Below are positions 23,671-44,846 of a stretch of DNA of 64,000 nt, one piece after another. Within the stretch, counting starts at the first letter, position 1; every line of letters starts with the position of its first letter. Made by a program: the position numbers and the translations under genes. Below the pieces are notes generated by a model. It saw nothing but the letters and a program-made list of their open reading frames with translations, ran no database searches and was not told the origin of the DNA. Source of the stretch: an uncultured Gammaproteobacteria bacterium. Lineage in GTDB: Bacteria > Pseudomonadota > Gammaproteobacteria > Arenicellales > JAANXG01. The DNA lies in contig CAMYNL010000002.1 of NCBI GenBank assembly GCA_947259705.1, positions 9,868 to 73,867 on the forward strand, in the 5' to 3' direction.

Positions 23671-24653
23671 GCCGGCCCGGCTCCGTCGACCTCCGCCGAC
23701 GTCGATGCCGCGGCCCCGGGGCGGTGGCGGGCCGCGGTGATGGCGGCCATGATGGAGACCGCGATCTCGGGTGGCGAGCGGCCGCCGAGGGGAAGGCCCA
23801 CCGGGCTTTGCAGCCGCGCCAGCTCGGCCTCGTCGAGGCCGAAGTGCCGGCGCAGGCGGTCGAGCCGCTTGGCGCTGTTGCCCCGCGAGGCCAGTGCGCC
23901 GACATAAAAAGCAGGTGAACGCAGTGCCTCCATCAACGCCAGGTCATCCAGGTTGGGTTCATGACTGAGGGCCAGCACCGCGGTCCGGCGGTCCGGCTGC
24001 AGGGTCGCCACCACCTCGTCCGGCGAGTCGGCCAGCAGGGTGACCGATTGGTCCTGCCAGTTCTGCCGGTAGCTGGCGCGCGACTCGCAGACCATGACCT
24101 GGTAACCCAGCATGCCCGCCATCGCCGCCACGTAGCCGGTGAGCTGGTTGGCGCCGATCACCAGGATCCGCCAGCGCGGCCCGAAGACCTGGACCAGCTG
24201 CTCGTCGTTACAGTTCATGTCCTCGTCACGGCCCGCCGGCTCGCAGTGCGCGCTGCCGGTGCGCAGGTCCAGGCAGCGCCGCACCACCCGCCGCTGGGTC
24301 AGCGCATCAACCGCCGCCTGCAGCGTATCCACGGCTTGCACCGGCTCCACCACCAGCTCGATGGTGCCGCCGCAGGGGAGCCCGAAGCGCGCCATCTGCT
24401 CGGCCTCGACACCGATGCTGACGCGCTCCGGCACGGCGGGGGCGGTGTCGTTGATGCGGTCGGTCAGCTCCTTCTCGATGCAACCTCCCGACACCGACCC
24501 GACGAAACGGCCGTCGTCACACACGGCCATCATGGCGCCCGGGGGCCGTGGGGAAGAGCCGAACGTCGCCACCACGGTGACCAGGTAGACGCGCCGCTGC
24601 GCGCGCATCCAGGCCAGCGCGGCATCGAGGACCTCGATCTCGACACCCTGCAT
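23667..24653 (-). CDS. XdhC/CoxI family molybdoenzyme maturation factor
   Basis: 328 aa. VYLVTVVATFGSSPRPPGAMMAV...GSVSGGCIE is followed by a Rossmann-like ILVIGANQLTGYVAAMAG. Confidence 0.8.
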   Translation of the reverse strand: MQGVEIEVLDAALAWMRAQRRVYLVTVVATFGSSPRPPGAMMAVCDDGRFVGSVSGGCIEKELTDRINDTAPAVPERVSIGVEAEQMARFGLPCGGTIELVVEPVQAVDTLQAAVDALTQRRVVRRCLDLRTGSAHCEPAGRDEDMNCNDEQLVQVFGPRWRILVIGANQLTGYVAAMAGMLGYQVMVCESRASYRQNWQDQSVTLLADSPDEVVATLQPDRRTAVLALSHEPNLDDLALMEALRSPAFYVGALASRGNSAKRLDRLRRHFGLDEAELARLQSPVGLPLGGRSPPEIAVSIMAAITAARHRPGAAASTSAEVDGAGPA

Positions 24654-24754
24654 GGTCTAACCCGTGTGTTGCACCAAGGCGGCGAAAAGAGGCGCCGACA
24701 TACTGTTTGGCATGTACATGTTTAACACAGTGCAGTATGACTCCGCATGTCCGG

Positions 24755-24862
24755 GAAAAAGTGGGGTCAGATCCGACTTACCGTGACGTCATCGGTCCAG
24801 CTGGCAGCCGCAAGGCTGTTCTCAAATAAGTGGGATCTGACCCCACTTTTGGAGTCGTGACT
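24755..24862. repeat. palindromic repeat element (REP/MITE-like), second and larger copy. It probably also acts as terminator of the quinoprotein operon.
   Basis: aaaagtggggtcagatcc (24757-24774) and its inverted partner gggatctgaccccactttt (24832-24850) flank about 57 bp. It is followed by ggagtcgtgact, which is identical to 11999-12010. The left end gaaaaagtggggtc is identical to 11985-11998. Confidence 0.6.
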
Positions 24863-24872
24863 ACGGCCCCGC

Positions 24873-25427
24873 CTACTGCCCGAGCAGGCGCAGAAAGGGG
24901 CCGGCTTCGGGATGGTTCTGGGCGGCGGCCTTGCGCAGCCACCGCGCGGCCTGCTCGAGGTCCGCGGCGGTCGCCTTCTCGGGCCCGGCGCCGTAGGCGG
25001 TCGCCAGCATCACGCCCAGGTTGAACTGGGCGTCCTTGTCGCCCTGCTCGGCGGCCTTGCGGAACCAGTCGGCGGCGGTCCGGTTGTCGCGCGCCACGCC
25101 CAGGCCCTTCTCGTAGGCCAGGCCCAGGTTGAGCTGGGCCACCGGGTCCCCGAGCTCCGCCGCCTTGCGCAGCCACTCGGCCGCCTTGGCCCGGTCCTGC
25201 GCCACGCCCTGCCCCTGCTCATACATATTGGCCAGGTTATTCATGGCGGTGGTGTTGCCGCGTTCGGCCAGCGACAGCCACAACTCGCGGGCCTGTTCGT
25301 AATCGCCCGCCTTGTAGACGGCGTAGGCCTTGAGCGACTCCACGGCCTCGCTGCTGCTGCGGTCGGGGCCCGCATGCACGGTCCCCAGCAGCAGCCAAGA
25401 CAGACAGAAAAACAGTACTCGCATCAC
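24873..25427 (-). CDS. Sel1-repeat (TPR-like) periplasmic protein
   Basis: 184 aa with signal peptide and repeated units A..NL(A/G).(M/A)Y..G.GV..D...A..W(L/F)RKAAE.G. Confidence 0.8.
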   Translation of the reverse strand: MMRVLFFCLSWLLLGTVHAGPDRSSSEAVESLKAYAVYKAGDYEQARELWLSLAERGNTTAMNNLANMYEQGQGVAQDRAKAAEWLRKAAELGDPVAQLNLGLAYEKGLGVARDNRTAADWFRKAAEQGDKDAQFNLGVMLATAYGAGPEKATAADLEQAARWLRKAAAQNHPEAGPFLRLLGQ

Positions 25428-25445
25428 ATCCTCCTCGATCCTCGC

Positions 25446-26000
25446 TCAGGGTGTTCCGGCATCGCCGATGGGCACCGGGGTTGCTTCCACCACTGGCTGA
25501 CCGTGTTGCTCCCACTCGTCGGTGCCGCCGCGGTACCAGTAGAGGTTACGATAGCCGTAGGCCGCCGCCCGCTGCACCGCGTTCCATGACATCCAGCAGT
25601 CCAGCACACAATAAAACACCACGGCGCGTCCCGGGTCGCCGGCGGTCAACTGCCGCAGGCTATCACGAAAGTATCGCTCCATCCTTGGTTCCAGCTCACC
25701 GAAGCCGACGTTGGGAAGCCAGGCGCTGCCGGCGATGTGATAGCGCACCGTGGCCGGCAGCCACTCCATGCCGAACTCCCGGGTCTCGGGCCTGACCACC
25801 ACCGGCTGCACATCGATCAGCACCGGGTCGGCATCGCGCATCAGGGACAACAGCTGCCCGGTGCCGAGGGTTTGCGCATGGGGTACGGTCAGCGGCGTGG
25901 GAGCGCGGTAGCGCTCCATGCGCAGGCCCTGCGGTCCGATGTGTTCCAACGCAGCGGGGTCGGCCGGCGCCGCCGGCGGGTACGCCAGCCAGCAGGCCAT
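25446..26000 (-). CDS. PQQ-dependent catabolism-associated CXXCW-motif (rhodanese-like) protein
   Basis: VVFYCVLDCWMSWNAVQRAAAYGYRNLYWYRGGTDEW carries the C-x-x-C-W motif. The start is uncertain because a signal-peptide-like in-frame extension runs upstream without an ATG/GTG/TTG start. Confidence 0.75.
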   Translation of the reverse strand: MACWLAYPPAAPADPAALEHIGPQGLRMERYRAPTPLTVPHAQTLGTGQLLSLMRDADPVLIDVQPVVVRPETREFGMEWLPATVRYHIAGSAWLPNVGFGELEPRMERYFRDSLRQLTAGDPGRAVVFYCVLDCWMSWNAVQRAAAYGYRNLYWYRGGTDEWEQHGQPVVEATPVPIGDAGTP

Positions 26001-26050
26001 TGCCGGCCACAGGCATCGTGCCAGGCGGGCGGTCGCCGCGGCCGATGGTA

Positions 26051-26992
26051 TCAGTTGGACACCCGCGGCAGCTCGCGCCGCTCGCGCTGAGGATAAAGAT
26101 GGCTCACGGAGCGATGAAACTCCGCCGGCATCACGCTCAAGGCATCGAATTCGCCGGGCAAGGGTGTGTAGAGCAATTCGGCCATGTCCACGCCGCTTCG
26201 CGCCGCGGTGTTCAGGGTCTGTTCCAGCCAGTCCAGGTAGCCGCGGGTCTGCATGACCGGGTGCAGGTCCCGGGTCACCGGTCCATGGCCCGGTACCAGT
26301 ACCTCGACCGGCAAGGCCTGGATACGCCGCAACGATCGCAGCCAGATATCCAGCTCCGCATGGGGGGTGGTGGGCGCGCGGTCGTGGAACACCAGGTCGC
26401 CGGCGAACAGGACCCCGGTGGCGTGGTCCAGCAGCATCAGGTCGTCCGGGGTATGACCGCCACCGGCGATCACCTGCAGGCGACGGCTGCCGAAGCTCAG
26501 TTCGCCCTCGTCAATGGCCTCGTCCGGCCGCACGGCTTCGGTACCGCGCATCCAGCTGCCCGCCAGGCGGTACATGTTGTCGGTGAAGGCATTGGCCTGG
26601 CTGCGTATGCCGTCAATGGTGCCGGCCAGCGCCAGGATCGGCACGTCGTCGTAGGCCTGGTTGCCGAGGAAGTGGTCGGGATGCATGTGAGTGATAAAAA
26701 CGCGGATGACGGGCAGGTCCGTGACCTTGGTGATGGCGGCGCGCATCTGTTCGCCATACAGCCGCGAGGGACCCGAGTCGATAACCACCACCCCGACCTC
26801 GGTGACGATGAAACCGGTGTTGACGATATTGCCGCCGTTGTCGAAGGAGAAGTCCTCATTGGCCCCCTGGAAAACGTAGGTGTCGGCGGCCACCTTGACC
26901 GGCTGCAGCCCATAGTCGAGATCCGCGGCGGCGGCGCTCCACGCCGAAAACATCGCCAGCAGCGCCAGCGCGAGTCTAAGGTGCCACCGCAT
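26051..26992 (-). CDS. quinoprotein relay system zinc metallohydrolase (MBL fold)
   Basis: 313 aa with signal peptide and the metallo-beta-lactamase motif ITHMHPDHFLGN (HxHxDH). Confidence 0.8.
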   Translation of the reverse strand: MRWHLRLALALLAMFSAWSAAAADLDYGLQPVKVAADTYVFQGANEDFSFDNGGNIVNTGFIVTEVGVVVIDSGPSRLYGEQMRAAITKVTDLPVIRVFITHMHPDHFLGNQAYDDVPILALAGTIDGIRSQANAFTDNMYRLAGSWMRGTEAVRPDEAIDEGELSFGSRRLQVIAGGGHTPDDLMLLDHATGVLFAGDLVFHDRAPTTPHAELDIWLRSLRRIQALPVEVLVPGHGPVTRDLHPVMQTRGYLDWLEQTLNTAARSGVDMAELLYTPLPGEFDALSVMPAEFHRSVSHLYPQRERRELPRVSN

Positions 26993-27810
26993 CAGCGCGC
27001 GGCGCCGCTGGCGGCCTTGCCCGCTGCGGCCGGCGGCGGAACGCTGGCGCGAAATCGATTACCGTTGTTGTCGCGGCCGCGGATCTGCACCGCGCCGCGG
27101 CCGGGCAGGTCGAGCGTGAACACTGGATTTTCCGACACCGGTTCGAAAGGCCTGATCTCCGCCAGCAGCTGGTCCTGGTCCCTGATCTCGATGTTTTCGA
27201 CGTGGAACACCGGGATGCCACTCGCCAGTCCCGTGTCCATGGGGTGGATGACATCGAAGCGTAGCCGACTTTGTTCCGCGCCGCGGTCCCACAGCCGGCC
27301 ATGTACCTGCCCCAGGCGCGCCACCCAGTCGGCGCCGCCGCTGCCCACGCTTGGCGCAGTGCAGCCGCCACCGGCGGCGTCCACCCACACGCCCCCCACG
27401 TGCCACACCTTGTCGTCAGCGGTGAGTACCGCCGCCCGGATCGGCGTGGATTGCTGCAACTTGACCCGAAAGCCGATGCGGGCGCGCGACTCCCGGGGAT
27501 AGAACTCCAACACCTTGGGCAGCGGATTCAGGTCCGCGATCACCAGGATCTTTTCGACCCGCCCCAGCGCACCGGCGTCCACCAGCACCGGCACCTCCAG
27601 GGAGTTCTCCGCGGCCTGCGGCGCCAGCACCAACACCCGGTTGTCGAACACCACCGGCCGGCCGGCCAGGTAAAGACCGTACATGTTTTCCCACTGCACC
27701 GAACGCAACGGATCGGCGGGCGGTGCTTCACCGGCCACCCCCCCGGTCGCCGAAAGCAGTGCCGCCGCCAGCAGCGGGGCCCGGATGGCAATACTCGAGA
27801 AGATCTTCAT
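26992..27810 (-). CDS. quinoprotein dehydrogenase-associated SoxYZ-like carrier
   Basis: 272 aa from the ATG at 27810 (MKIFSS...). A SoxY-like half ends in VDAAGGGC (Cys codon 27361-27363), followed by a SoxZ-like half. Confidence 0.7.
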   Translation of the reverse strand: MKIFSSIAIRAPLLAAALLSATGGVAGEAPPADPLRSVQWENMYGLYLAGRPVVFDNRVLVLAPQAAENSLEVPVLVDAGALGRVEKILVIADLNPLPKVLEFYPRESRARIGFRVKLQQSTPIRAAVLTADDKVWHVGGVWVDAAGGGCTAPSVGSGGADWVARLGQVHGRLWDRGAEQSRLRFDVIHPMDTGLASGIPVFHVENIEIRDQDQLLAEIRPFEPVSENPVFTLDLPGRGAVQIRGRDNNGNRFRASVPPPAAAGKAASGAAR

Positions 27811-28420: not shown

Positions 28421-29284
28421 TCAACCGCCGGCGCGGCGCAACCGGCTCGGGGTTTGATAGGTCGTGCCGAAACGCTGAAAGATGCGCTCCAGCTCGCCTT
28501 CGGCCTGCAATGCGGCAACCGCTTCCTCCACCGCCACGGCCAGGTCGCCGTGGTCGGCCTTGACCGCGGCGCCCACATCCCAGCCGGACTGGCGCAGCCC
28601 GGGCATCTGGATCGGGCCGAGGCGGTAGTTCGCCGCTTGGTCGCCGAGCGCCGCCTGCAACTCCGCGCGCGGCGCCATCACCCCGGCCAGTTCGCCCTGC
28701 TTGAGGGCCCTGGCGGCCTCCGCAACACTGCGGAAATGGACCACGTTGTCGCGGATCTGGCCGTTGTAGGCGCTGAGCAGATAGAGATCCGCCAGCGTAT
28801 CCAGTTCCACTCCCACCTTCTCGCGGGTGAACACGTCCAGCGCCAGCTCACGGTCGCCGAACCCGGGGTCCAGGGCCACCACGATCTGCTCCCGATAGTA
28901 GGGAGCGATCAGCCGCACGCGGTCGTTCCCGCGAGCGAATTCCGGATCATAGGGGACGTGCAGCATGACGTCGGCCACCACGCCGCCGAGGTAATGGCCC
29001 TTCCAAACGTAGATGCGCAGATCATCCTCCATGGTCTCGTCCGGCGGTACCAGCCGCACGGACGCGGAGACGCCCAGTTTCTCGGCAATCAGTTTCGCGA
29101 GTTCCACGTCGATGCCGGTCGAGCGCCCGCCCTGCTCGTAGGAAAACGGCGGGAAGTCGTGGTAGAGGGCCACATCCAGCACCCCCTTGTCGCGCACCTT
29201 GGCAAGCCCGGTGACGTCCTGGGCCATGCTGACGCCCAGCCACCACAGCAGGACCGCGGCGGCGGCCGGTTTCAGGTATTTCAA
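28421..29284 (-). CDS. quinoprotein dehydrogenase-associated periplasmic binding protein (MoxJ/XoxJ-like, family-3 SBP)
   Basis: 287 aa with signal peptide and an SBP_bac_3-like sequence (VLDVALYHDFPPFSY...). Lies next to the cytochrome c and PQQ dehydrogenase genes. Confidence 0.8.
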   Translation of the reverse strand: MKYLKPAAAAVLLWWLGVSMAQDVTGLAKVRDKGVLDVALYHDFPPFSYEQGGRSTGIDVELAKLIAEKLGVSASVRLVPPDETMEDDLRIYVWKGHYLGGVVADVMLHVPYDPEFARGNDRVRLIAPYYREQIVVALDPGFGDRELALDVFTREKVGVELDTLADLYLLSAYNGQIRDNVVHFRSVAEAARALKQGELAGVMAPRAELQAALGDQAANYRLGPIQMPGLRQSGWDVGAAVKADHGDLAVAVEEAVAALQAEGELERIFQRFGTTYQTPSRLRRAGG

Positions 29285-29312
29285 GGAGTCGGCCCTCCTG
29301 CGGCGTCGCTGG

Positions 29313-29738
29313 TCATTCCTCGACGTGCTTGGTCTCCAGCCAGGCGCGGATCGCCCACAGGGCCTCCTGGCTGAGGATACCCTCGAACTTGGGCATGTAG
29401 GTCACGCCGTTGCGGATGGCGCCGTTGCGCGCGCGGTAGATGAACCATTCATCACCCTCGTCCTCGACCGGAAGCAGGCGAAGGTCCGGCGCAATGCCGC
29501 CCGACATGCCTCCCAGTCCGTGGCAACGGGCACAGTTCTGGTTGTACGCCGAGGACCCGAGTTCAATGGCGTCCGCATTGCCGCGGTAAGGATTCTTCTC
29601 CAGCCAATCCTCCCCGATCTGGGGAAGATGTGACGTATCGACCGCCTGCGGCTGCACGTCGCCATGACCCAACACCACCCCGGTCATGGCCGCCAGGGAA
29701 GCAACTCCCAGTAATCTGGTCAACATCGTTCTCGCCAT
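29313..29738 (-). CDS. c-type cytochrome, electron acceptor of the PQQ dehydrogenase (PedF/XoxG/c550-like)
   Basis: 141 aa with signal peptide and a single haem site CARCHG. The C-terminus MPKFEGILSQEALWAIRAWLE is typical of this group. Confidence 0.85.
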   Translation of the reverse strand: MARTMLTRLLGVASLAAMTGVVLGHGDVQPQAVDTSHLPQIGEDWLEKNPYRGNADAIELGSSAYNQNCARCHGLGGMSGGIAPDLRLLPVEDEGDEWFIYRARNGAIRNGVTYMPKFEGILSQEALWAIRAWLETKHVEE

Positions 29739-29881
29739 AACAAATCACCTCTGGATTCTATTAAATAGAAAGGCGGCATCCCTTCCTGTGGACCCTCGCT
29801 TGCCGGGCCCGTGTGATCATGCACCGAATCGTACGCCTGAGGAAACGACCGGGGACTTTCGGTCGATGGTCTCTCAAGCAA

Positions 29882-29949
29882 GAAAGACCGGCATCCAGCC
29901 GGTCTTTCCAACCATGCAGCGGTGCCGGGGATGCAGGCGTCCCCGGCAC
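29882..29949 (-). terminator. tandem stem-loops between the PQQ dehydrogenase and cytochrome c genes (attenuator or partial terminator)
   Basis: First hairpin: gtgccgggga / tccccggcac (29922-29949), a 10-bp stem. Second hairpin: gaaagaccggc / gccggtctttc (29882-29908), an 11-bp stem followed on the minus strand by ttgcttg. Confidence 0.5.
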
Positions 29950-29959
29950 TGAACGCTTA

Positions 29960-31705
29960 CTACGACGCGGGCAGCTTGAACACCCACAGCGACCCGCCCT
30001 GGTTCAGGTACTTGACCTTCTTGGCCACGTCTCCGCCCCACAGCGGCACCGCGCCGCCCCAGCCGGAGGGCACGGCGACATACTGTTCGCCGTCCATCTC
30101 CCAGGTGATGGGACAGCCGACCACGCCGGAGCCGGTCTGGAATTTCCACAATTCCTTGCCGGTCTTGGCGTCGAAGGCCTTGAGGTAGCCCTCCGGGGTT
30201 CCGGTGAACACCAGGCCGCCGCCGGTGGTCATGACGCCACCCCACAGCGGCGCGTTGTTCTTGTACTCCCAGACGATCTTGCCGCTGTTCGGGTCGATGG
30301 CGCGCAGGGCCCCGATATAGTCCTCGTTGAGCGGCTTGATGGTGAAGCCCGCACCCAGGTAGGCGGCGCCCTTCTTATAAGTCACCGGCTCGTTCCACAG
30401 GTCCATGCCCCACTCGTTGGCCGGCACGTAGAACAGATTGGTGTCCGGGCTGTAGGCCATCGGCATCCAGTTCTTGCCGCCCAGGAACGACGGGGCGACG
30501 AAGATGGTCTCGCCCTTCTTGCCGTCCGCGCTCTTGGTCGGATCGCCGGCACGCACCCCGGTCTCCATCGGACGCCCGGTCTTCAGGTCGATGCCCTTGG
30601 CCCAGTCGATCTGCTTGACGAAGGGGAAGGCGTTGACCAGCTTGCCGTTGGTGCGGTCGAGCACGTAGAAGAAACCGTTGCGGTCGGCGTGGCCGGCCAG
30701 CTTCTTGCCGCCCGAGTCGAACGACACCAGTTCGTTGACGCCGTCGTAGTCCCAGCCGTCATTCGGCGTGTACTGATAGTGCCACACGATCTTGCCGGTA
30801 TCCGGGTTGATCGCCACCGTGGAGGTGGAGTACAGGTTGTCGCCGGGACGGGTATGGGCGTTCCAGGGCGCCGGGTTGCCGGTGCCGTAGAAGATGAGGT
30901 TGGTGTCGGCGTCATAGGCACCGCCCAGCCAGGGGGCGGCGCCGCCGGTCTTCCACATGTCGCCCGGCCAGGTGGCGTTCACCTTGCCGGTGACGCCGTT
31001 TTCCTTGCCGTCCTTGGTGCCCATATGGCCCTCGACCGTGGGACGCACCCAAACCATTTTTCCGGTTTTGGCGTCGCGCGCCTCGACCCGGCCGACGATG
31101 CCGAACTCACCGCCGGACACGCCGGTGACCACCATGCCCTTGACGATGATCGGCGCGGCGGTGAAGGAGTATCCGGCCTTGAAGTCGTCGATCTTTTCCT
31201 TCCACACCACCTTGCCGGTGTCCTGGTTGAGAGCAACCAGCTGGGCGTCCAGGGTGCCGAAGATGACCAGGTCACCGTACAGAGCGGCGCCGCGGTTGAC
31301 GACATCGCAGCAGGGCAGGATGCCGTCCGGCAGGCGATGGTCGTACTGCCACAGTTCCTCGCCGGTCTTGGCGTCGATGGCGTACAGGCGCGAATAGGAA
31401 GCGGTCACGAACATGCGGCCGTCGTGGACCACGGGTTGTGCCTCCTGGCCGCGTTGCTTCTCGCCACCATACGAAAACACCCAGGCCGGCACCATGTTCT
31501 TGACGTTTTCGGTGTTGATCTTTTTCAGCGGGCTGTAGCGTTGCCCCTGCAGGCCCATGCCCCAGGTCACAACGTCACCGGTGGTCTTGGCGTCGTTGGC
31601 GATATCACTGTCGGACACCGCCGCCTGGGCGGGCGCCGCCAGCATCACCGTCAGCAGGGCGGTTGCCCCCGCGACACTGACCCCAGAAAGATAATTGTTA
31701 TTCAT
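29960..31705 (-). CDS. PQQ-dependent alcohol dehydrogenase, type I (ExaA/PedH-like), with lanthanide-type DYD motif
   Basis: 581 aa with signal peptide. It has the [12 protein letters not shown] block, the vicinal disulfide PCCDVVNRG, and [11 protein letters not shown] with the extra Asp (codon 30743-30745) characteristic of Ln-dependent enzymes. Confidence 0.9.
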
Positions 31706-31817
31706 CGCAGCAAGCTCCTCCGAGTGTTGAGATTAACGAGTTCAAAGTCCCGCAGCCCACGACACGCAGTCACCACAGGCGACGGCCGCCGTTTCGACTG
31801 GGGTGGCTTGATCCACA

Positions 31818-31833
31818 AGCAATAATGGTGCCA
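31818..31833 (-). promoter_or_regulatory. sigma-54 promoter of the PQQ dehydrogenase operon
   Basis: The minus strand reads TGGCACCATTATTGCT, a perfect TGGCAC-N5-TTGC, about 113 nt upstream of the ATG at 31705. Confidence 0.7.
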
Positions 31834-32076
31834 GACGGAGGCTCGTGCTCTACCGGCGCGGCTCCAGCCCGCCCGGCTCCGCCGCCGACGGGCATCATTA
31901 CGCCGCAAGCCATTGTTTATACTTGATTAAAACTTCCAGGAGTAGATTTCCTTAGCGCGTTACTTTGATTTTCAGCATGCCGCGCCCCTGGTTTGCCGCC
32001 TGCCGTGACAGGCAGACCGGCTCGCCTTCTCCATGGACGCGACAACTGTATCAGATTTGTGACAGCTTTGCGGTCA

Positions 32077-33027
32077 TTACCAGGTGCCCAGGGCATCGAG
32101 CATCTGCTGCTTCTTGGTTTCGTAGTCCTCGTCGGTGATCAGGCCCTGTTCGCGCAACCGGTTCAGGGTGGTCAGGCCTTCCTCGAGTTCCTGCCAGCTG
32201 ATGCCCCGCCCGACCGGCGCCGGGGCGGCGGCGGGTGCGGCCGGTGCGGATGGGCGGATTGCTTCCTCACTACCCAGTATTTCCCTGAGTTCTTCACGCC
32301 TTCTGGCCATTTCTTCATTTTTGCGCGTTGTTGCCATCTGATCGAGAGCAGCCAGCGCTGTTCTTACATCAATTACCAGCCAGTCATCCCGTCGAGAACC
32401 ATTTATCTGCTTATTTTCTATTCCGACGACTTTCATGATGGTCTTATCAAATTCTTTAGATCTCTTTGTGCGACTACCGTGATCAAATTTGTAGTGGAGG
32501 ATTCCCACATTGGTGGGATCATAGGCCGCCTCAAAGGCTTCCTCCCTAAGCCGGTTGTAATCTCCAATGATGACATTAAGTTTATTGTCTTTGTTAAACG
32601 CCCGACCGGCCACAAAATACCGCGCGGGTTTAAGAATAACAAAACGATCGACGCTCTTTTGCAGGGCGAATATGATGTCCTGGTTCGGATTGGCGCTCCT
32701 GAGACCTTTGGCGAGATTTTGACCCAGCAGTTTCGCCTGCTCAGCGGTAAATACAGGTTTTAGTTCTTCCGCTGACTTGCTGTCATCCTTTCCTTGGATC
32801 TTCAACGCCTCCAGGACAGCGCTTATTTCCCGTGCGTTTAATGCGACAGGATGATCATTCCTGCCAAAGCTCGATTCATCCTGGTCGGCGTACTTGATAA
32901 ACTCATTAGCACTCGCTTTCCAAATTTCATCGTCATCGGCAGAAGCATGACCTGCAAAGACAATTGATGAAGAAAGTATTAGAAGTGAATAAAAAAAAGT
33001 GGCGAGTCGATTCTCTGACATGTTCAT
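32077..33027 (-). CDS. secreted hypothetical protein with C-terminal SHOCT domain
   Basis: 316 aa, AT-rich, with a signal peptide and an Ala/Pro linker. The C-terminal LTTLNRLREQGLITDEDYETKKQQMLDAL is a SHOCT-type motif. Confidence 0.65.
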   Translation of the reverse strand: MNMSENRLATFFYSLLILSSSIVFAGHASADDDEIWKASANEFIKYADQDESSFGRNDHPVALNAREISAVLEALKIQGKDDSKSAEELKPVFTAEQAKLLGQNLAKGLRSANPNQDIIFALQKSVDRFVILKPARYFVAGRAFNKDNKLNVIIGDYNRLREEAFEAAYDPTNVGILHYKFDHGSRTKRSKEFDKTIMKVVGIENKQINGSRRDDWLVIDVRTALAALDQMATTRKNEEMARRREELREILGSEEAIRPSAPAAPAAAPAPVGRGISWQELEEGLTTLNRLREQGLITDEDYETKKQQMLDALGTW

Positions 33028-34548
33028 TGTATAGAGGCTTAGTCAGCCATTATGGCGAAGTGGGCTACGATGAGTTCAGAGCGTAAAGTACCCGGCAATC
33101 TTACAACAAATATGCAGACGCCGACAGTGAGAGGATAACCCGCTAACTATGAATCCCGGCCGCAATGCTGTCCACCGCTTCGTACACCGTAATGTGAGCC
33201 GAATACAAGCCACGGGTGACGACCCTGGGCCCGATCTACGACCCCCAAGAAGCTAAACTCATCTAGATTCCCACAGAATATCCACGCGGGTGAAGCGCTC
33301 GACATGCGCATGCTACGTCGATTTTTTACTGCATGCCCTGCATTCGGCCCCAGCTGAATTCGGGGACGCATGTCTCACTGTCAAGCCCAGCCACAGGCAA
33401 GCGCAGAAGGGTAAAATGATCAGTTACCCACCCACACATTTATACACGAAACACCGCTCTAACGCTGGACTGACGGAGCAACACGCCACTCAATCCACGG
33501 ACGCCGCGCCGACCCTCTGATCTCACGCGGTCGCAGCGCGCCCATTCCGATGCCGAGCTGAACCCTGGCGTTGAACATCTCCTTCGAGCGCAATTTTTTG
33601 ATTTGGGCGCCTTCCTGTGCCAGCCTGTTTACTTACCGATCACTCGATACATCGTCCACGACTTTAATACTAATGATCATTTGGACAGATCCATAGCGCA
33701 CTAGCGGATCAGCTCGCGTAGTCGCGCGACGGCCCTGGCCGCCTCAAGGAGGCGAGAAACAAGCCTTCAATTGCCTGTATCGGGTTTTCAGGCGTTACTG
33801 ATTTCTGTTGTGGATGCGAAAAAGCTTTGCTTGCAATCGCGACTACTTGCCGGAGAATCGCGCACCTGCACGCGCCGATCTACACCGCCCGTCGCCCCAT
33901 CACCGTAATCGTGCGTTAAGCGTCGACGGCTAAACGCCATGTTCGGTATTTAGCTCCGCAGGTACCCCATCCCGTCGTTCTACATTCTCACCTCCCGGTT
34001 TGCTTTTTTCCCGTCTGGTGGGCCCGCTCAAGTCTCTGGCTGGAATCCCGTTTGCGCGATGAGGGTCGGTTCGCCCCCTGAGTAGGGTACAAACTCCGCT
34101 AACCGCAAAGCTCGGCCGGGCGCGTTTCATAATTCGCCGCGGTTCCGACCACCGGCCCAGGCCTTGTCCGGGTGACCAGACGGCTCCTGGTCTACTACCG
34201 CCCGTCGTCGGCCGTAACCGGCCCTATCGTTGATCATCCCTAAAATCAATGTTTTTGGTATGGATATTGCTTCAGTTAATTGTTGTGCTAGTGATACAAA
34301 GAGTGGCTAAGCGGGTTCTTGCCCATTGTGTAACGAGCCAACGCAGTAAAGGCGCGGTATTCGATTAGAGCCGAATACTTCGGAGCACAATGGTCCGCGA
34401 GGTCAGAGCAATTGGCAATGAGTTAATTGTTGCTTCTATGAGACGCTCTGTTGCATTATTGGCACACTGCTGTTTAGTCGCGCAAGTTCTTGGCTGGCGG
34501 ACAGCAGGCAATTGAAATTTTCCAATTTGCTTGTGGAGGGTAATTCGA

Positions 34549-35775
34549 ATGGTTAATAAAAAATCGTTAGCAGGAGTCTGCGTAGCCGCAGCGACGATGA
34601 TGATTCCTGTGGCGCAGGCAGCAGAACATGAGGCGAAATGGGGTATTTCGGGCTGGATCAACGAAGGCATCACCTACTACGACGACGGCGTAGACAGCGA
34701 CGTAGCTCAGCTCTCCGATAACGGTACCACTCTAGGCAGTCGGATTACGCTCAACGGTTCTTTCATGCCTGCTGAAACCAATCTGACCGCGGGATTTGAA
34801 GTGATTCTCGAAGTCTTTTCCGGGGACCCGTACTTCGCCAATGGGACTCCGGTTACTCCACTGCTCTTCTCCAACCAGGACAATATCAACACCGTCAATG
34901 GTGCCGATATCGGTGTACTGGGCAGCAGTGTGAACATTGGTGGCAACTGGGGCAAGTTCACCATTGGTCTGCAGAGCATGCCTACGGACAATATTGCCGT
35001 ACTCGCGGATCCCTCGGGGACCATATGGTCCGGCATCTCCCCCGTCTTCCGCGGAAACGGGTTCCTGATTCGGGGACTGGGGGCGGGCACAACCAATGCG
35101 CGTTGGGGCGATTTTCTTCAATGCCTCACCGTACCCGGGCTGGGTATCGGTTTGGACTGTAACGGTATCTATCGTAATGGCGTTCGTTACGACCTGCCTG
35201 CGTTTGGTAATTTCAGTGTCGCGGTTGGTTGGGCGAATGACAAGGTCTACGATATTGCAGCGAAATACAGCGGTGAACTTGGTGGTTTGACAAGCAATAT
35301 TCACGCTGGCTATGCAAAAAACAATGACGGCGGCACCAACGTTAACGCGAGTGAGTCTGACGTTTTTCAGATTCAATGGGGCCTGCTGCATCCCGGCACC
35401 GGACTGTTCGGCCTGGCCACCTATCAAAAGGAAAATTCCGATAACGCGACCCCGGGGTCGGGGGATAGTGGTGATGCCTGGTACTTCAAGGGCGGTATCA
35501 AGAAGAAATGGGCCGCCTTCGGGCCGACATCGCTTTACATCGAGTACGGTTTGTACAACGACCAGTACGGCTTGGCTAACGCTGATGGCGTGTCCGGTTC
35601 TGAGGTCGATCGTATTGGTTTGGCCGTCGATCAGGAGATCGGCAGCAGATTGCGGATCTACGGCAAATGGAAACGGCTCAGCCTAGACGTAGACGGTAAT
35701 GCCACGGCCCAGACCTTGTATGGTGGGGCCGAGGACTTGAACCTGTTTACGCTTGGCTTCGTTGTGTTCTACTAA
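34549..35775 (+). CDS. outer-membrane porin, paralog of 17326-18393
   Basis: SD GGAGGG lies 8 nt upstream of the ATG at 34549. The signal peptide MVNKKSLAGVCVAAATMMIPVAQA shares the (V/I)PVAQAA motif with the other porin, and both share D(N/D)GV(N/D)SD. It ends ...LGFVVFY. Confidence 0.8.
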   Translation: MVNKKSLAGVCVAAATMMIPVAQAAEHEAKWGISGWINEGITYYDDGVDSDVAQLSDNGTTLGSRITLNGSFMPAETNLTAGFEVILEVFSGDPYFANGTPVTPLLFSNQDNINTVNGADIGVLGSSVNIGGNWGKFTIGLQSMPTDNIAVLADPSGTIWSGISPVFRGNGFLIRGLGAGTTNARWGDFLQCLTVPGLGIGLDCNGIYRNGVRYDLPAFGNFSVAVGWANDKVYDIAAKYSGELGGLTSNIHAGYAKNNDGGTNVNASESDVFQIQWGLLHPGTGLFGLATYQKENSDNATPGSGDSGDAWYFKGGIKKKWAAFGPTSLYIEYGLYNDQYGLANADGVSGSEVDRIGLAVDQEIGSRLRIYGKWKRLSLDVDGNATAQTLYGGAEDLNLFTLGFVVFY

Positions 35776-35870
35776 GGAATCGTGCGTAGGCCAACGGGTT
35801 TGCTGCGGCCACCCTCGGACGACTGCAAACGGGGCTAACGCCAAACCTGGCCTGGCTAAAGCAATACGAA

Positions 35871-35900
35871 AACGGCGCCTTACCGGCGCCGTTTTTTTTC
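35871..35900 (+). terminator. rho-independent terminator of the second porin gene
   Basis: aacggcgcc-ttacc-ggcgccgtt followed by tttttt. Confidence 0.85.
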
Positions 35901-36271
35901 AGCAGTAGGTTTATCGCAACAGTCCAGGGGCATTGCAACGGAATTCGGGGTGACAGACGCCGCTCTGGACTTCAAGGGCACATAGGTCGCTGTGGCTTGA
36001 ACGAAAGCTGGCCGCTACCCTTATTCTGCATTGTCGTTAGTGTGATCATTTATATATCCGTCTAACGAAAACGAAAGTACACCGGTCGCAGCGTCGAAAT
36101 GTTCTTCGGCATTACAGTCTGGCAGCTGGACGTAATTGAAGACCTGAATCCTTATCCGGACATCTTTGATCTACCAGACAAAAAATTAGAATCCCTGGCG
36201 AACGCCTGGTGGATATATTGAAAGCTGCGATAAAACCATCACAGCAACGCGACCTTAATTGATTATGTATA

Positions 36272-36736
36272 TCAGTCTCCAATCCATCTTCCTGCCTCCA
36301 TTGCACACTTGCGGATTGCTTCTGCGCGCTTGACGGGATCACCGTATATTTCCCACCCCAAAACAGCGGCATCAACCTCCAGGAGGAACTTTACAGCGCC
36401 GCGTATTTCATGAGGTTTGCCATATTTCCCGACAAAACAATCTGCCTGAGCCTCCTGTAATGCGGGATACAATTTGGGTGAAGCGAGAAGAGTATGGTTC
36501 AGCTTGATATGGGCATGGGCATGGGCCCGAAAGAAGCCGCAGGCGTCACCGATTTGTTCGCAGTATTCGGGATTATAAACAACGGCTGAACCCCAATTAG
36601 GATCAGCCCTTGCCATGGCAATGTCCGGCAGATTGGAGTCCTCGATTTCCCAAAACGGTACAACTGTCGCATTACTGCAGGACAGGAAAGCGACAACTCC
36701 CGCACACAGGATTCCGTTCCCTGGCTTGCTAAGCAT
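36272..36736 (-). CDS. hypothetical lipoprotein
   Basis: 154 aa with lipobox AFLSCS. It contains FFRAHAHAHIKLNH and several Cys. I recognise no family. AT-richer islet. Confidence 0.5.
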   Translation of the reverse strand: MLSKPGNGILCAGVVAFLSCSNATVVPFWEIEDSNLPDIAMARADPNWGSAVVYNPEYCEQIGDACGFFRAHAHAHIKLNHTLLASPKLYPALQEAQADCFVGKYGKPHEIRGAVKFLLEVDAAVLGWEIYGDPVKRAEAIRKCAMEAGRWIGD

Positions 36737-37072
36737 TTACGACAGATACAATCCAATGGGATGGAAAAGAAAGCGATTGTAGCTTGAGCCGACAAGGATC
36801 GTAAGAGTTCAACTCATCGAGGGCTCTATTGGGCTGAGAGTCGACGAAGAGATGTCGCAGTCTCGTCAATTCTCTGAGGATCTGGTCAGTCATCTGGATC
36901 ACGAATTAATAAACCTTGTTGCCTGATAGGTGCATTAGGTCAACGTGTCGCCGCCAAATTGGTAACTACCAGCCTATGGCGCTAACGCGAGTCGGGTTTG
37001 CAGCACATGCGTTTGCGGTCGATGGCCCGATATTGTGACGACTATTTCACCTAGCGATGCCCAGTGTTGCGA

Positions 37073-39469
37073 CTAGAAATTCATGCGCAGCCCAATCCAG
37101 GCGCCGAAGGGCGCCCCGGGCCCCACGAAACGCCGGGCTCCGGCGAACGCGGGACCCAGCACCTCCTCGGGTTCACCGAACACCCCGAAGGTCTCGTACT
37201 CGGTGTCGAACAGGTTGTTGACCCGCGCGAACAACTCGGCCCGCGGGGTGAAGCGGTAGGTGGCGTTCAGATTGAAGATGGCGAAACCGTCCAGGGGGTC
37301 GGCGGTGTTGGATTCGTCGCCGCGGAAGAACTGGTCGCTCTGCGTCATCATGTCGGCGCCGAGGGTAAGCCGGTCGTTGATGTCCCAGGCGGCACTGAGG
37401 CGCAGCAGGTGCTCGGGGATGCCCGGGATGCGGTTACCGGGGCTCACCACCAGGGCTTCCGGTGCCGGCCGGTCGGGGTCTGCCGGATCGCGCAGCGGGT
37501 GGTTGGGGGAGTTGACCAGGAACGCGTCGCGGAACTCGGCGTTGATGTAGGTGTAATGGGCAGCGTAACGCACCGACCCGGCGCTGCCGGTGAGGCTGAG
37601 TTCCAGTCCCCGGCGGCGAGTGTCGCCTATGTTGTCGAAGAAACCCTGGCTGGTGCTGCTGCCGTCGCTGATGAACAGGATATCGTCCTTGTTGAGGGCG
37701 TCGAAAAGCGCCACGCTCCAGCGCAGCCCGCCGATGGTGTCACCCCGCACTCCCAGTTCGAAGGTGCGCGTCACCACCTGATCCAGCGGCGGATCGTCAA
37801 CGAACGCGTTCGGCAGGCGACAGGGATCGTCCGGGTTGGCGCAAGTCAGTTCCGCCGGCGTGGGCGCCCGGCTCGACTCGGCGTAGGACCCGAACACAGT
37901 TATTCGCTCACGCGGGAACCAACTGACGGCGATCGCCGGATTCAGTCGGTCGAAATTGTGATCACCCGTCAGGCTGCTGTCATCGTCATCGTCCGCCGCC
38001 CCGTCGTCAACATCGTCCGCAGCGCCATCTTCGTCGTCGAGCTGATCGCGCAGCTTGATGTCCGTGTAGTTGTAACGCGCCGACAACGTGAGATCGAGCT
38101 GGTCCGACAGGGCGAACGTATCGCTGATGAACAGACCGCCGTGAAATGTCTCGGTATCGACGTCGGTGACGGAGGCCTGGTCGATGAAACCACTGCCGAT
38201 GGTGCCGCGGTCCCCGGTGAGGCGGGCCAGCTCAGTCCGTTGCTGGAAATTGGCATCACCGTAGTCAATGCTGGCACCGTAGAGGATGCGATGATTGCGT
38301 GCGCCGATCACCACATCACTGAAGGCCTGCAGGGAGCCTCCCAGGGCGTACTGGCTGGTTTCGCTGCTGTTCTCGGTAGCCCCCTCAACGTCTTCGGTAG
38401 CGGCGACGGGGTTGCCGAACTGGTCGAAGACGAGCTCCTCACCGTCGTCCTCCTCCTCGCAGACCAGGCCCTCGTTCTCCGGAGATTCGCATTCCTCGTA
38501 ATCACTGCCGTCACCGTTGAAGGTCTCGGTGTCGGTACTACGGTAATAGGCGATGCCGGTGAGCGTCGTACGTTCACTGGCCACCCACGAGGAGCGCAGG
38601 TTGAACTGCGCCAGACGGTTCTCGGTGATGTCCGGATGGGTGAAGACCGCTTCCCGGCCCTCGACTGCCAGCAGCTCCTCGGGGGCGGCGCCGTTGCCGC
38701 GCAGCTCGGAATCGGTCAGGGTGAGGGCAAGGTCGGTGTCCACGTTCTCACCCTGAAAGCTGTACTTGCCGAAGGCCTGCCCGAGTTCGCTGTCCGAGAA
38801 GTCCCGCCAACCGTCTTCGGTGAAACCCTCGGCGGTGAGGTACCAGGCACGGTCGCCGCGGTCGGCACCGGTTTCCGCCTGCAGCGCGAAACGCCCGAAG
38901 CTGCCGCCGTACGCCTCGACCCGCGTACCCGGATGGGTGAACCCGCTCTTGCTCTGCATGGCGATGGCGCCGCCCAGCGTGTTCAGCCCGAACAGGGGGT
39001 TCGAGCCAGGAACGAGTTCGAGCCGCGATACGGCCGAGTCGGGGATGGTGTCCCAGTTCACCACGTCCCCGAACAGTTCGTTGCGCCGCACGCCGTCCAC
39101 GTACACGGAGATGCCCTGTGGGAACCCGAGCAGGGAAGAACTGCCGAAACCGCGATAGAAAAGCTCCGGCTGGTAGGGGTTGTTCTGGGCGTCGTTGATG
39201 TGCACCGAGCCGAGGTTCTGGCGCATGAAGTCGCTGAGGTTGAGCGCGCCCGAGGCCCTGAGGTCCTCGTCGGTGGCCGCCTGCACATTGCCGGGAAACC
39301 GTTGGGCCTCGGTGGTGGCCGCGCCGCCCGGGGCGGTGATGATGATCTCCTCCTCCACCGGCTGCGCCATGGACGGGGCCCCGACCGCAAGCCCGTTGAG
39401 CACGGCCAGCGACAGCAGCACCGGCGGCGGGGCGCAATGTCTACGAACACCCGCGATCACGAAACGCAC
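37073..39469 (-). CDS. TonB-dependent outer-membrane receptor with two hyper-acidic inserts
   Basis: 798 aa with signal peptide, a plug region (ITAPGG...NLSDFMRQNLGSVHIN...YRGFG) and the C-terminal beta-barrel ending ...WIGLRMNF. The acidic inserts are GDGSDYEECESPENEGLVCEEEDDGEE and DDEDGAADDVDDGAADDDDD. Confidence 0.9.
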   Translation of the reverse strand: MRFVIAGVRRHCAPPPVLLSLAVLNGLAVGAPSMAQPVEEEIIITAPGGAATTEAQRFPGNVQAATDEDLRASGALNLSDFMRQNLGSVHINDAQNNPYQPELFYRGFGSSSLLGFPQGISVYVDGVRRNELFGDVVNWDTIPDSAVSRLELVPGSNPLFGLNTLGGAIAMQSKSGFTHPGTRVEAYGGSFGRFALQAETGADRGDRAWYLTAEGFTEDGWRDFSDSELGQAFGKYSFQGENVDTDLALTLTDSELRGNGAAPEELLAVEGREAVFTHPDITENRLAQFNLRSSWVASERTTLTGIAYYRSTDTETFNGDGSDYEECESPENEGLVCEEEDDGEELVFDQFGNPVAATEDVEGATENSSETSQYALGGSLQAFSDVVIGARNHRILYGASIDYGDANFQQRTELARLTGDRGTIGSGFIDQASVTDVDTETFHGGLFISDTFALSDQLDLTLSARYNYTDIKLRDQLDDEDGAADDVDDGAADDDDDSSLTGDHNFDRLNPAIAVSWFPRERITVFGSYAESSRAPTPAELTCANPDDPCRLPNAFVDDPPLDQVVTRTFELGVRGDTIGGLRWSVALFDALNKDDILFISDGSSTSQGFFDNIGDTRRRGLELSLTGSAGSVRYAAHYTYINAEFRDAFLVNSPNHPLRDPADPDRPAPEALVVSPGNRIPGIPEHLLRLSAAWDINDRLTLGADMMTQSDQFFRGDESNTADPLDGFAIFNLNATYRFTPRAELFARVNNLFDTEYETFGVFGEPEEVLGPAFAGARRFVGPGAPFGAWIGLRMNF

Positions 39470-41597: not shown

Positions 41598-43448
41598 TCA
41601 CAAACCCAGTCGTTGTTTGGTCTCATCGGTGACGACGCCGTCCGCCGTCCAGCCGCGGATCTTGTAGTACTCCGGCAGCATCTTGCCGAGTTCGTTCACC
41701 TTGCCCTGGGCCGGACCGGCGTTCGCAGCTTCTTCCAGCAGGCGCTTGGGCAGCGTGTCATCCTTGCCCGTCACACCGGCCAGGCGGTTGAACTCGCGTT
41801 CCATGTTCCAGATCCGTTCCCCCAGTTCCACCAGCTTCTCGGTGGTCCACCCGCCCTCGCAGGCGGCGTCGAGCTGCGGCGCCACGTCGTCCAGGGTCCA
41901 GGCAAAGGAGGTGAACACGCACAGGCCGCTGGAATCGAAGGCGGCGGTGGCGTCCTGGAAGGCCTTGACCAGCTCCGCCTTGCCCTCGGTGGCCAGCGGA
42001 TCGGTCTTTTCCGGGATGCCGAGGATCTCGGAGGCGACGGTGTAGCCGCGCAGGTGGCAGGCGCCGCGGTTGGAGGTGGCGTAGGCCAACCCCATGCCCT
42101 GGATGCCGCGCGGATCGTAGGCCGGAAATTCCTGGCTCTTCACGGTCATGGAGAGCTCGGGATGACCATACTTCTCGCACATCCTCCTGGAGCCCAGCGC
42201 CAGGTCGCGGCCGAAACCCTCACCCGCGGCCACCATCTCGACGCCATGCACCAGCGCCTCGGCGGAACCGAAATTGTAGGCCATGCCACCGGTGTGCTCA
42301 TTGGTGATCACGCCCATCTCGTAGAGCTCCATCGCCGCGGCGACGGTAGCGCCGAAGGAGATCGGATCGATGCCGTCCTCGTTGCACACGAAGTTGGCAT
42401 AGGTGATCGCATCGAGGTCATCAACGCCGTTGTCCGAACCCAGCGACCAGGCCGCCTCGTATTCCAGCCCGCCGGAGGCCTTCCAGTACTCGGGCTTGTT
42501 CTTGATGGTGAAGTGGCCCTGGTCGACGGTGGAGATGCGCCCGCAGGCGATGGTGCAGCCGAAACATGCCGCGTTGGTGGTCAGGTTGGGCTGACCATCG
42601 CTCGCGCGTGGCTCGTGCATCGCCTCGCCGGAGATCTTATGGGCGCCCTCGAACTGAGTCTCGCGCATGTTGCGGGTAGGCATCGCCCCCGACTCGTTTA
42701 TGACGTTCATCAACACCTGGGTGCCGTACTTGGGCAGGCCCTCGCCGGTCACGGCATTCTCGCGCAGCACCCGCTTGCCCTCCTCGGTGGCCTGCAGGAA
42801 ACGCATCGGGTCCTTGATATTGCCGACGCCCTTAGTGCCTCGAGCCACCACGGCCTTGAGGTTCTTCGACGCCATCACGGTGCCGACCCCGGAGCGGCCG
42901 GCGGCGCGGTGCAGGTCATTGACCACCGCGGAATAGAGGCAGCCGTTCTCCGCCGAGCGGCCCACCAGGGCGATCTTGATCAGGGCGTCCTGGTGCTTCT
43001 TGTGCAGGATCTCGTCGGCCTCCCACACCGATTTGCCCCAGATGTCACCGGCATCCATCAATTGGACGCTGTCGTCATGCACATACAGGTATACGGGCTT
43101 CGGCGACTTGCCCTCGAAGATGATCATGTCCCAGCCGGCGGCCTTCAGCTCGGCGCCGAAATAACCGCCGGAGTTGGAGCAGGCCACGGTGCCGGTGAGG
43201 GGGCTCTTGGTCACCACCGAGTACCGGCCGCCGGTGGAGGCCATGGTGCCGGTGAGGGGACCGGTGGTGACGATGAACTTGTTGTCCGGCCCCAGCGCGT
43301 CACAGGTGGGATCGACCTCCTCCACCAGGTACTTGGTCGCCAGCCCGCGCTGACCCAGGTACTGCTGGGCCCATTCCATGTTGAGCGGCTCTTCGGTGAT
43401 CTTGCCCTCGGTGAGGTTCACCCGCATCACTTTGTTGGTCCATGCCAT
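41598..43448 (-). CDS. aorB: tungsten-type aldehyde:ferredoxin oxidoreductase family protein (AorB-like)
   Basis: 616 aa from the ATG at 43448 (SD GAGGAGG). MAWTNKVMRVNLTEGKITEE...QYLGQRGLATKYL and the overall length are typical of the AOR family. Confidence 0.9.
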   Translation of the reverse strand: MAWTNKVMRVNLTEGKITEEPLNMEWAQQYLGQRGLATKYLVEEVDPTCDALGPDNKFIVTTGPLTGTMASTGGRYSVVTKSPLTGTVACSNSGGYFGAELKAAGWDMIIFEGKSPKPVYLYVHDDSVQLMDAGDIWGKSVWEADEILHKKHQDALIKIALVGRSAENGCLYSAVVNDLHRAAGRSGVGTVMASKNLKAVVARGTKGVGNIKDPMRFLQATEEGKRVLRENAVTGEGLPKYGTQVLMNVINESGAMPTRNMRETQFEGAHKISGEAMHEPRASDGQPNLTTNAACFGCTIACGRISTVDQGHFTIKNKPEYWKASGGLEYEAAWSLGSDNGVDDLDAITYANFVCNEDGIDPISFGATVAAAMELYEMGVITNEHTGGMAYNFGSAEALVHGVEMVAAGEGFGRDLALGSRRMCEKYGHPELSMTVKSQEFPAYDPRGIQGMGLAYATSNRGACHLRGYTVASEILGIPEKTDPLATEGKAELVKAFQDATAAFDSSGLCVFTSFAWTLDDVAPQLDAACEGGWTTEKLVELGERIWNMEREFNRLAGVTGKDDTLPKRLLEEAANAGPAQGKVNELGKMLPEYYKIRGWTADGVVTDETKQRLGL

Positions 43449-43461
43449 GTCGTGTACCTCC

Positions 43462-43980: not shown

Positions 43981-44079
43981 TGCAAAACTCCTCCGGATTT
44001 TCTCGTGGCTCTCGGTGGCTGAATATCATACAGGGTCAGCGCGGCGTTGCCGCGTAAACCGTGATAGCCATACGTTACC

Positions 44080-44095
44080 TGCAACTTGCGTGCCA
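44080..44095 (-). promoter_or_regulatory. sigma-54 promoter of the aor operon
   Basis: The minus strand reads TGGCACGCAAGTTGCA, a perfect TGGCACG-N4-TTGCA, about 100 nt upstream of the aorA ATG. Confidence 0.75.
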
Positions 44096-44179
44096 TGGAT
44101 GCGCGGCGCCTGTCTCGCGCCTAAACAGGCGGCCGGGGGCCTGGTCAGCCTCAGATTTGTTGCATACGCGCCTGGCGAT

Positions 44180-44195
44180 GTCCCAATAATGGGAC
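44180..44195. promoter_or_regulatory. perfect palindrome, candidate enhancer (UAS) for the AcoR-like activator
   Basis: GTCCCAATAATGGGAC lies about 90 bp upstream of the -24 element of the aor sigma-54 promoter. Confidence 0.3.
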
Positions 44196-44208
44196 ACCCG
44201 CGCGGGCT

Positions 44209-44830: not shown

Positions 44831-44846
44831 TGGCACGGTGTTTGCT
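44831..44846 (+). promoter_or_regulatory. sigma-54 promoter-like element directly upstream of the AcoR-like regulator gene
   Basis: TGGCACGGTGTTTGCT is a perfect TGGCAC-N5-TTGC. Its 3' end lies 20 nt before the ATG at 44867. Confidence 0.55.

Follow-up and report, generated by a model that had tools for sequence, protein, structure and literature searches.

Promoters served by RNA polymerase-sigma-54 are known from several systems that resemble the locus described here. The nif promoters that depend on NifA have an upstream activator sequence of the form TGT-N10-ACA, and the -24 element of Klebsiella pneumoniae nifH is TGGTAT; in Bacillus subtilis, the RocR site of rocG is a sigma-54 enhancer that lies about 1.5 kb downstream of its promoter. 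Our subject is a gene-free tract of 1521 nt (33028-34548) within a stretch of 64,000 nt, here called the window, from contig CAMYNL010000002.1 of an uncultured gammaproteobacterium of the order Arenicellales. The tract lies between a SHOCT-domain gene on the minus strand, which ends at 33027, and a porin gene on the plus strand, which starts at 34549. We find it to be real but for the most part ordinary: it is an enlarged regulatory region between divergent genes, in which a sigma-54-like promoter motif and a series of activator-type palindromes stand ahead of the porin gene.

The porin side of the tract shares with the NifA-dependent nif promoters, and with alcohol and ketone regulons of the AcoR and MimR type, both the exact spacing of GG at -24 and GC at -12 and the presence of TGT...ACA palindromes. 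Two further features are held in common with such systems, a GAF-domain activator encoded nearby and targets concerned with the oxidation of alcohols and aldehydes. Differences lie in the spacing of the palindromes, which is N12 and not N10, and in the placing of the sites, which in this lineage follow the promoter motif instead of preceding it by 100-250 nt; the activator is a candidate suggested by its neighbourhood. The rocG enhancer shows that activator sites downstream of a sigma-54 promoter can still activate; here, however, one site abuts the predicted start of transcription and could equally inhibit.

In its arrangement of genes the locus may be likened to the ped/exa cluster of Pseudomonas, in which the porin PP_2662 (PA1974 in the exa cluster) is encoded beside alcohol dehydrogenases dependent on pyrroloquinoline quinone (PQQ), is induced along with them and is reported to be a likely route of entry for short-chain alcohols (PMC12997753). 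The parallel would be one of arrangement, an outer-membrane porin beside PQQ alcohol dehydrogenases. The ped cluster is governed by the LuxR-type regulator AgmR/ErbR together with two-component systems, in place of a local sigma-54 promoter, and no SHOCT partner appears in the excerpted part of the ped gene table (PMC12997753).

The porin-proximal control region

Judged by its sequence, the right-hand part of the tract is a sigma-54 promoter region. Our criterion was a GG at -24 that stands at a fixed distance from a GC at -12 (TGGCAC-N5-TTGCW-like), and an exact match to TGGYAY-N5-TTGC, which we call P1 (TGGTATGGATATTGC), occurs at 34256-34270 on the plus strand, 293 nt upstream of the porin ATG; transcription from it would begin near 34282. 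Six such matches occur in the window where 0.63 are expected, a number that was reached in 0/100 shuffles. Five of the six lie ahead of gene starts and the sixth (44831) falls just inside the called start of an activator gene. Outside the tract, but putatively within the same regulon, a match on the minus strand (TGGCACCATTATTGC, 31819-31833) lies 114 nt upstream of the ATG of a PQQ-dependent alcohol dehydrogenase (ADH), and another (44081-44095, also minus) lies upstream of the gene for an aldehyde:ferredoxin oxidoreductase. The 11-mer ACCGCAAAGCT, found at the ADH and porin genes, is the only k-mer common to the regions upstream of the sigma-54 motifs and is of marginal weight. Among loci from relatives, cited here by number, the porin has its sigma-54 motif at -280 to -305 in L161, L002 and L001, and the motif is present also in L003/L164. 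The porins of L012, L079, L081, L008 and L165/L166 have other sigma-54 motifs ahead of them. In L002 and L012 both the ADH gene and the porin gene are preceded by one.

Similarity to relatives, sought with blastn and nhmmer across all loci, is confined to the porin end of the tract. There nhmmer aligns 34130-34559 with 9568-10011 of L001 (E=2.8e-16) and 34235-34555 with L002 (E=3.7e-7). Upstream of the promoter motif, a GC-rich region (34130-34255, plus strand) is alignable with L001 alone (nhmmer; alignment A1), and the conserved region of about 270 nt that runs from P1 to the porin ATG (34271-34548, plus strand), with the Shine-Dalgarno (SD) sequence GGAGG, has a mean column identity of 64% (alignment A2). 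A profile of the conserved segment finds five lineages besides the copies of the window group, namely L001, L161, L002, L003 and L164. The region 34271-34548 is conserved as DNA sequence, and not as an RNA structure or as an upstream open reading frame (ORF). An RNAalifold consensus of the porin leader from five lineages, 336 columns long, has an energy of -6.6 kcal/mol; its helices are weak and scattered, and no structure is backed by covariation.

Three candidates within this region were considered and rejected. The first is a leader peptide. An earlier reading of the locus, made from its letters without database searches (the sequence-only reading), had held that no short ORF here has an SD; this is so for nearly all, but an SD-like sequence does precede one ORF of at least 30 aa (34390-34515, 41 aa). 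That ORF has no conserved start or stop in L161, L002 and L164, and its differences from L001 are spread over codon positions 1/2/3 as 4/7/4 by our own count. The second is 'TTGGCAC' at 34459 as another sigma-54 promoter, for which the GC at -12 is absent or out of register in every lineage, and which is better read as the right half of a palindrome (S3, below). The third, TGGCTG-N5-CAGCA at 34491, is not conserved in L161, L003 or L002 on our own reading of alignment A2.

The palindromes are the second principal feature of the region. The first, S1 (TGTTGTGCTAGTGATACA, 34281-34298), is an activator-type TGT-N12-ACA palindrome that is found at the corresponding place in L001 and L002. An imperfect site, S2 (TGTTGCTTCTATGAGACG, 34428-34445), is preceded by the repeated 12-mer AGTTAATTGTTG, whose two occurrences at 34274 and 34421 form part of repeated operator-like sites, and has counterparts at the matching place in L001 (TGTTACATGGTTGATACA) and L002 (TGTTGCTGTTTTGATACG). 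The third, S3 (TGTTGCATTATTGGCACA, 34449-34466), is again of the form TGT-N12-ACA and is placed 21 nt after S2; it is conserved in L002, L161 and L003/L164, and its counterpart in L001 has one mismatch (alignment A2). The window as a whole contains 14 TGT-N12-ACA palindromes against 7.2 expected, and the regions upstream of the porin in eight lineages contain 12 such sites by our own count, against a background of 0.25 per kb. One of those in the window (32047-32064) is about 215 nt upstream of the ADH sigma-54 motif, the canonical position for an enhancer, and a perfect 18-bp palindrome (TGTCCCAATAATGGGACA, 44179-44196) is about 85 nt upstream of the aldehyde oxidoreductase motif. Ahead of the porins of L012 and Candidatus Thiodiazotropha (L165/L166), too, the palindromes occupy the canonical layout, 150-260 nt upstream of the sigma-54 motif. 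The suggestion that the whole tract might be an unusually long porin leader or regulatory region is thus upheld for its right-hand 420 nt or so, which are conserved and carry both the sigma-54 motif and the activator-type palindromes.

A candidate for the regulator is encoded at 44807-46912 on the plus strand, a predicted enhancer-binding protein with Pfam matches to GAF, sigma-54-activator and HTH_8 domains. Homologues of it adjoin the SHOCT/porin pair in L003, L004, L079, L091 and others, and an activator of the MimR_N type does so in L164. Within the window its gene is divergent from and adjacent to the aldehyde:ferredoxin oxidoreductase locus, and the whole of 41598-46912 looks like the core of a regulon. 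A second regulator, of the NtrC type with a Pfam match to Sigma54_activat, is encoded at 54698-56089.

At the opposite end of the tract, a conserved 16-mer (TTACAACAAATATGCA, 33101-33116), 74-89 nt upstream of the SHOCT ATG, is a putative promoter or operator element for that gene. It is found again in L003 and L004 at a level above every shuffle, as no other element on this side is, and visual inspection shows look-alikes at about the same place in L001, L002 and L161. A consensus scan also produced a sigma-70-like -35/-10 match directed towards SHOCT (TGGACA-17-CATAGT, 33146-33174, minus strand), a candidate promoter only, as sigma-70-like matches are no commoner in the tract than in shuffles.

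In explaining these observations, we favour on balance a tract that is the divergent control region of SHOCT and porin, enlarged in this lineage by about 1 kb of functionless DNA. An enhancer-binding protein of the GAF type, responsive to alcohols or aldehydes and perhaps the product of 44807-46912, would bind the TGT-N12-ACA palindromes and switch on RNA polymerase-sigma-54 at P1, so that the porin would be made together with periplasmic enzymes of alcohol oxidation, from a messenger with a leader of about 270 nt that starts near 34282. The porin sites may act as downstream enhancers, as a brake, or as both. The leftmost 150 nt or so would contain the SHOCT promoter, and the middle 0.9-1.0 kb (about 33180-34095) would be inert, with no function of its own. 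Enhancer-dependent promoters may be insensitive to the DNA upstream of them, which would explain why the additional DNA has persisted upstream of P1.

The interior of the tract and its origin

The tract is by far the longest gap in the window, the next-largest measuring about 470-690 nt on a rough gene list, and the sequence-only reading was right to describe it as free of credible ORFs. The longest start-to-stop ORFs within it are of 76 aa (33290-33520, plus), 74 aa (33147-33371, minus) and 66 aa; one of 102 aa that begins with GTG (34365-34673, minus) only overlaps the start of the porin gene. The longest run without a stop in any frame extends over 97 codons. In every frame there are 16-26 stops per approximately 520 codons, which on our own estimate is close to the density in random sequence of 55% GC, and in GC content the three codon phases differ by no more than 0.16, where the neighbouring TonB-receptor gene reaches 0.41. 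The same tract is present in the metagenome-assembled genome (MAG) GCA_945787095.1 at 99.9% identity (over 13.3 kb) and in an independent metagenome contig of the Joint Genome Institute (JGI), Ga0452216_255264, at 98.6% (over 2.95 kb). Its occurrence in three independent assemblies shows that assembly did not create it.

Several remarks made previously on its composition also survive closer inspection. The interval of 31.9-37.06 kb is indeed AT-richer than its surroundings (GC 0.44-0.61 there, 0.62-0.72 in the flanks), and the mosaic pattern attributed to the tract is roughly right, GC being 0.57-0.61 at 33700-34150 and 0.45-0.51 at both ends. The 11-mer ACCGCCCGTCG is repeated as reported, at 33884 and 34197. 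The short hairpins are likewise present, but in a number that is at chance level, there being five perfect stems of 6 bp and one of 7 bp, where Markov resamples have 3.2 +/- 2.1 and 0.8 +/- 1.2.

Differences between near-identical strains are unevenly distributed. Locus L159 has none in 34130-34548, against 22 in 33201-34129, and carries 2 additional nt at 33327 that disrupt the two longest ORFs; in L160, 5/14 differences fall within the tract, which makes up 11% of the length (Poisson p ~0.02, our own estimate). These differences are consistent with weak constraint on the interior. A patch of elevated divergence in L159 (32869-33485) reaches from the 5' end of SHOCT into the left of the tract. 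It has 25 differences in about 620 nt, mostly transitions, together with the 2-nt indel, against some 4 per kb further right; 19 substitutions lie within 33222-33485, and this part of the patch may reflect a recombination boundary. A second cluster of nine differences is found within the porin gene, at 35091-35115, and the two clusters suggest patches of recombination. No relatives with a porin between 74% and 99% identical were found.

Certain points weigh against the account of the tract as a control region enlarged by inert DNA. The use of P1 and the length of the porin leader are both predictions. The porin palindromes of the window group are downstream of P1, with S1 overlapping the predicted start, which is an unusual position for an enhancer; the geometry of activation is uncertain in consequence, and S1 could instead be repressive. 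The absence of function in the interior would follow from negative results and from three near-identical strains only. Finally, exact direct repeats are mildly over-represented in the tract, with four pairs of 11-mers against 0.32 expected (p ~0.01), and the sequence at 33563-33606 bears a weak likeness to the DNA immediately ahead of P1 (p 0.014-0.2, according to the scoring used), although a profile scan gave no confirmation. This likeness is a weak hint that the interior may have arisen by ancient duplication within the control region and not from a foreign source.

Among other explanations the one that survives best concerns the origin of the interior and is compatible with a control region at either end. 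It is possible, though we think it rather doubtful, that the middle kilobase is an inserted gene or mobile element (an insertion sequence (IS), a miniature inverted-repeat transposable element (MITE) or an integrated fragment) that has decayed beyond recognition. The additional DNA is specific to this lineage, the gap being 1521 nt against 465-963 nt elsewhere, and an extra 1.3 kb, which contains a 154-aa gene that has been relocated, separates porin from TonB receptor in the same lineage. The third-position GC content (GC3) of the cassette looks foreign, the SHOCT/porin pair of Thiodiazotropha adjoins a transposase and an integrase, and on the plus strand of 33850-34300 the GC skew (about -0.15) and AT skew (about -0.19 to -0.24) have the sign of the minus-strand SHOCT gene. 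Against this, every search for positive evidence of a decayed gene or mobile remnant has been negative, and only an insertion that has eroded completely would fit the interior. A Pfam search of the tract, translated in all six frames and with stops masked, was negative, a concatenated six-frame query of 5.8 billion proteins returned nothing at E<=10 in any frame, and the 97-codon open frame had 0 matches among 1.84 billion representatives. With tblastn, 13,950 ORFs of relatives and 540 of the window gave only noise in the interior (<=26.6 bits); blastn, nhmmer and tblastn against 161 loci showed no similarity between the interior and any relative, and distant blastn against plasmids and phages no match. 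There is no codon periodicity, and the stop density is, as estimated above, that of random sequence. The junctions of the interior have no terminal inverted repeats, and a self-similarity search found no second copy of it within the 64-kb window. A direct repeat spaced by 956 nt (33140-33246 and 34096-34202), considered as a duplication or as attachment (att) sites, was rejected, its local score being within the range of shuffles; it is 47% identical in register, and this offset, although the top one, is not clearly above others.

We regard as improbable the proposal that the interior is a lineage-specific non-coding RNA (ncRNA), whether a small RNA (sRNA) or a long unstructured one, or else part of a much longer 5' untranslated region (UTR) of porin or SHOCT. 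The tract is free of ORFs and has been retained in three strains, 33500-34129 has few strain differences (5 in 630 nt), and 33766-33777 is perfectly complementary over 12 nt to 34505-34516 in the porin leader. On the other hand, chance alone would produce about 0.1 inverted repeats of 12 nt in a sequence this long by our own estimate, and the interior is unconserved beyond strains that are 98.6% identical. No terminator-like site was found in the tract, and no sigma-54 motif in the interior even with 2 mismatches allowed. Rfam, with 4227 families, gave no match in the tract at E<=1 and none at the gathering score in the whole window, ARAGORN found no tRNA, and there was no excess of folding energy on either strand (z-scores of -1.65 to +2.2). 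We give similarly slight credence to two more elaborate proposals: that the interior is a young regulatory RNA, or a distant enhancer or insulator module, which tunes both divergent promoters (for instance through the complementarity of 33766-33777 and 34505-34516), or that the downstream activator sites represent a distinct and conserved control logic for an alcohol-uptake porin.

The sequence-only reading had raised the possibility of a large structured ncRNA. That the entire tract is one such RNA of the OLE, GOLLD, ROOL, HEARO or group II intron kind is effectively refuted, for it resembles these, raiA and ORF-less group II introns only in being an ORF-free stretch of kilobase scale, and differs in having no covariance-model match at E<=1, no structural signal in its folding z-scores or its hairpins, no covariation in the part that is conserved (the leader consensus being weak, as above) and no conservation over three quarters of its length, the interior included, beyond near-identical strains. 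The interior (33180-34095, about 0.9 kb), in which no gene, RNA family, structure or homologue was detected, is best read as a lineage-specific, non-functional spacer that originated either as an eroded insertion or through drift of the spacer itself.

The SHOCT/porin pair and its surroundings

The gene to the left of the tract encodes a secreted protein of 316 aa with a Pfam match to SHOCT (32077-33027, minus strand), and that to the right a predicted porin of 408 aa (34549-35775, plus strand) with a match to Porin_OmpG_1_2, whose homologues are called porin in their sources. The pair is widespread and conserved in marine Gammaproteobacteria. Homologues of SHOCT adjoin a porin in more than 70 gammaproteobacterial loci, and both genes are present in most of the 158 Gammaproteobacteria loci fetched, carriers including Arenicellales, Thiodiazotropha, Alteromonas, Glaciecola, Porticoccus, Woeseiaceae and many MAGs. 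The commonest layout is porin followed by SHOCT on the same strand; the pair is divergent, as it is in the window, in 10 other lineages, which have 465-963 nt between the genes where the window lineage has 1521-1523 nt. Of the first 78 loci, 16 have a PQQ dehydrogenase no more than 10 kb away, and a sigma-54 activator is often nearby. A full-text search of the literature for the SHOCT/porin pair gave nothing related.

An Arenicellales chromosome (OZ244194.1, our L002) has the same order as the window, with ADH (87% identical), SHOCT, porin (72%) and TonB receptor (63%), and the cassette is therefore old at this position. The earlier description of an AT-rich 'islet' holds in so far as codon usage in this lineage looks foreign, with a GC3 of 0.50-0.63 in the three islet genes where ADH and the TonB-dependent receptor have 0.83-0.89, but the cassette is an old resident, syntenic in this relative. 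The GC3 of the pair is near-native in L002 and L161, and not in the window lineage, where the cassette was probably replaced from a donor of lower GC. In Candidatus Thiodiazotropha L165/L166 (500-2733) the pair adjoins a DDE transposase gene, and in one of these loci a phage-type integrase gene and an AlpA gene also, a neighbourhood that would fit a cassette able to move horizontally.

A second lineage-specific insertion lies on the far side of the porin gene, between it and the TonB receptor (35776-37072), where L161 has only 57 nt. It contains an ORF (36272-36736, minus strand) for a lipoprotein-like conserved hypothetical protein of 154 aa, with no Pfam domain and 31 homologues; that of the Arenicellales relative is encoded at a quite different chromosomal place. 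A strong hairpin bordered by runs of A and T (AAAACGGCGCCTTACCGGCGCCGTTTTTTTT, 35866-35897), 90 nt past the porin stop, is probably the porin terminator; its sub-threshold, partial Rfam match to STnc420 reflects terminator shape only.

On the other side of the SHOCT gene, the PQQ-ADH (29960-31705) is followed on the minus strand by genes for a cytochrome c (29313-29738) and an SBP_bac_3 protein (28421-29284), the whole occupying 28421-31833 with the ADH promoter motif. This order resembles xoxF-xoxG-xoxJ, and the dehydrogenase has the sequence WDYDGVNE, an Asp-x-Asp signature of the kind usual in lanthanide-dependent XoxF/ExaF/PedH enzymes. Lanthanide uptake could be the role of the adjacent TonB receptor (37073-39469). 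Upstream of the xox-like genes, 24549-27810 contains genes for SoxYZ, a metallo-beta-lactamase-fold protein and a rhodanese, as annotated on the identical contig L160, and sulfur-oxidation genes therefore adjoin the alcohol-oxidation cluster.

A tract that looked like a candidate for a large unknown RNA has proved to be mostly a regulatory region plus filler. Its examination has given a previously unannotated picture of a SHOCT/porin pair that is repeatedly linked to PQQ alcohol dehydrogenases and sigma-54 activators. In this organism the porin has its promoter type and operator motif in common with genes for the oxidation of alcohols and aldehydes, which predicts a co-regulated module in which uptake and oxidation would be combined.

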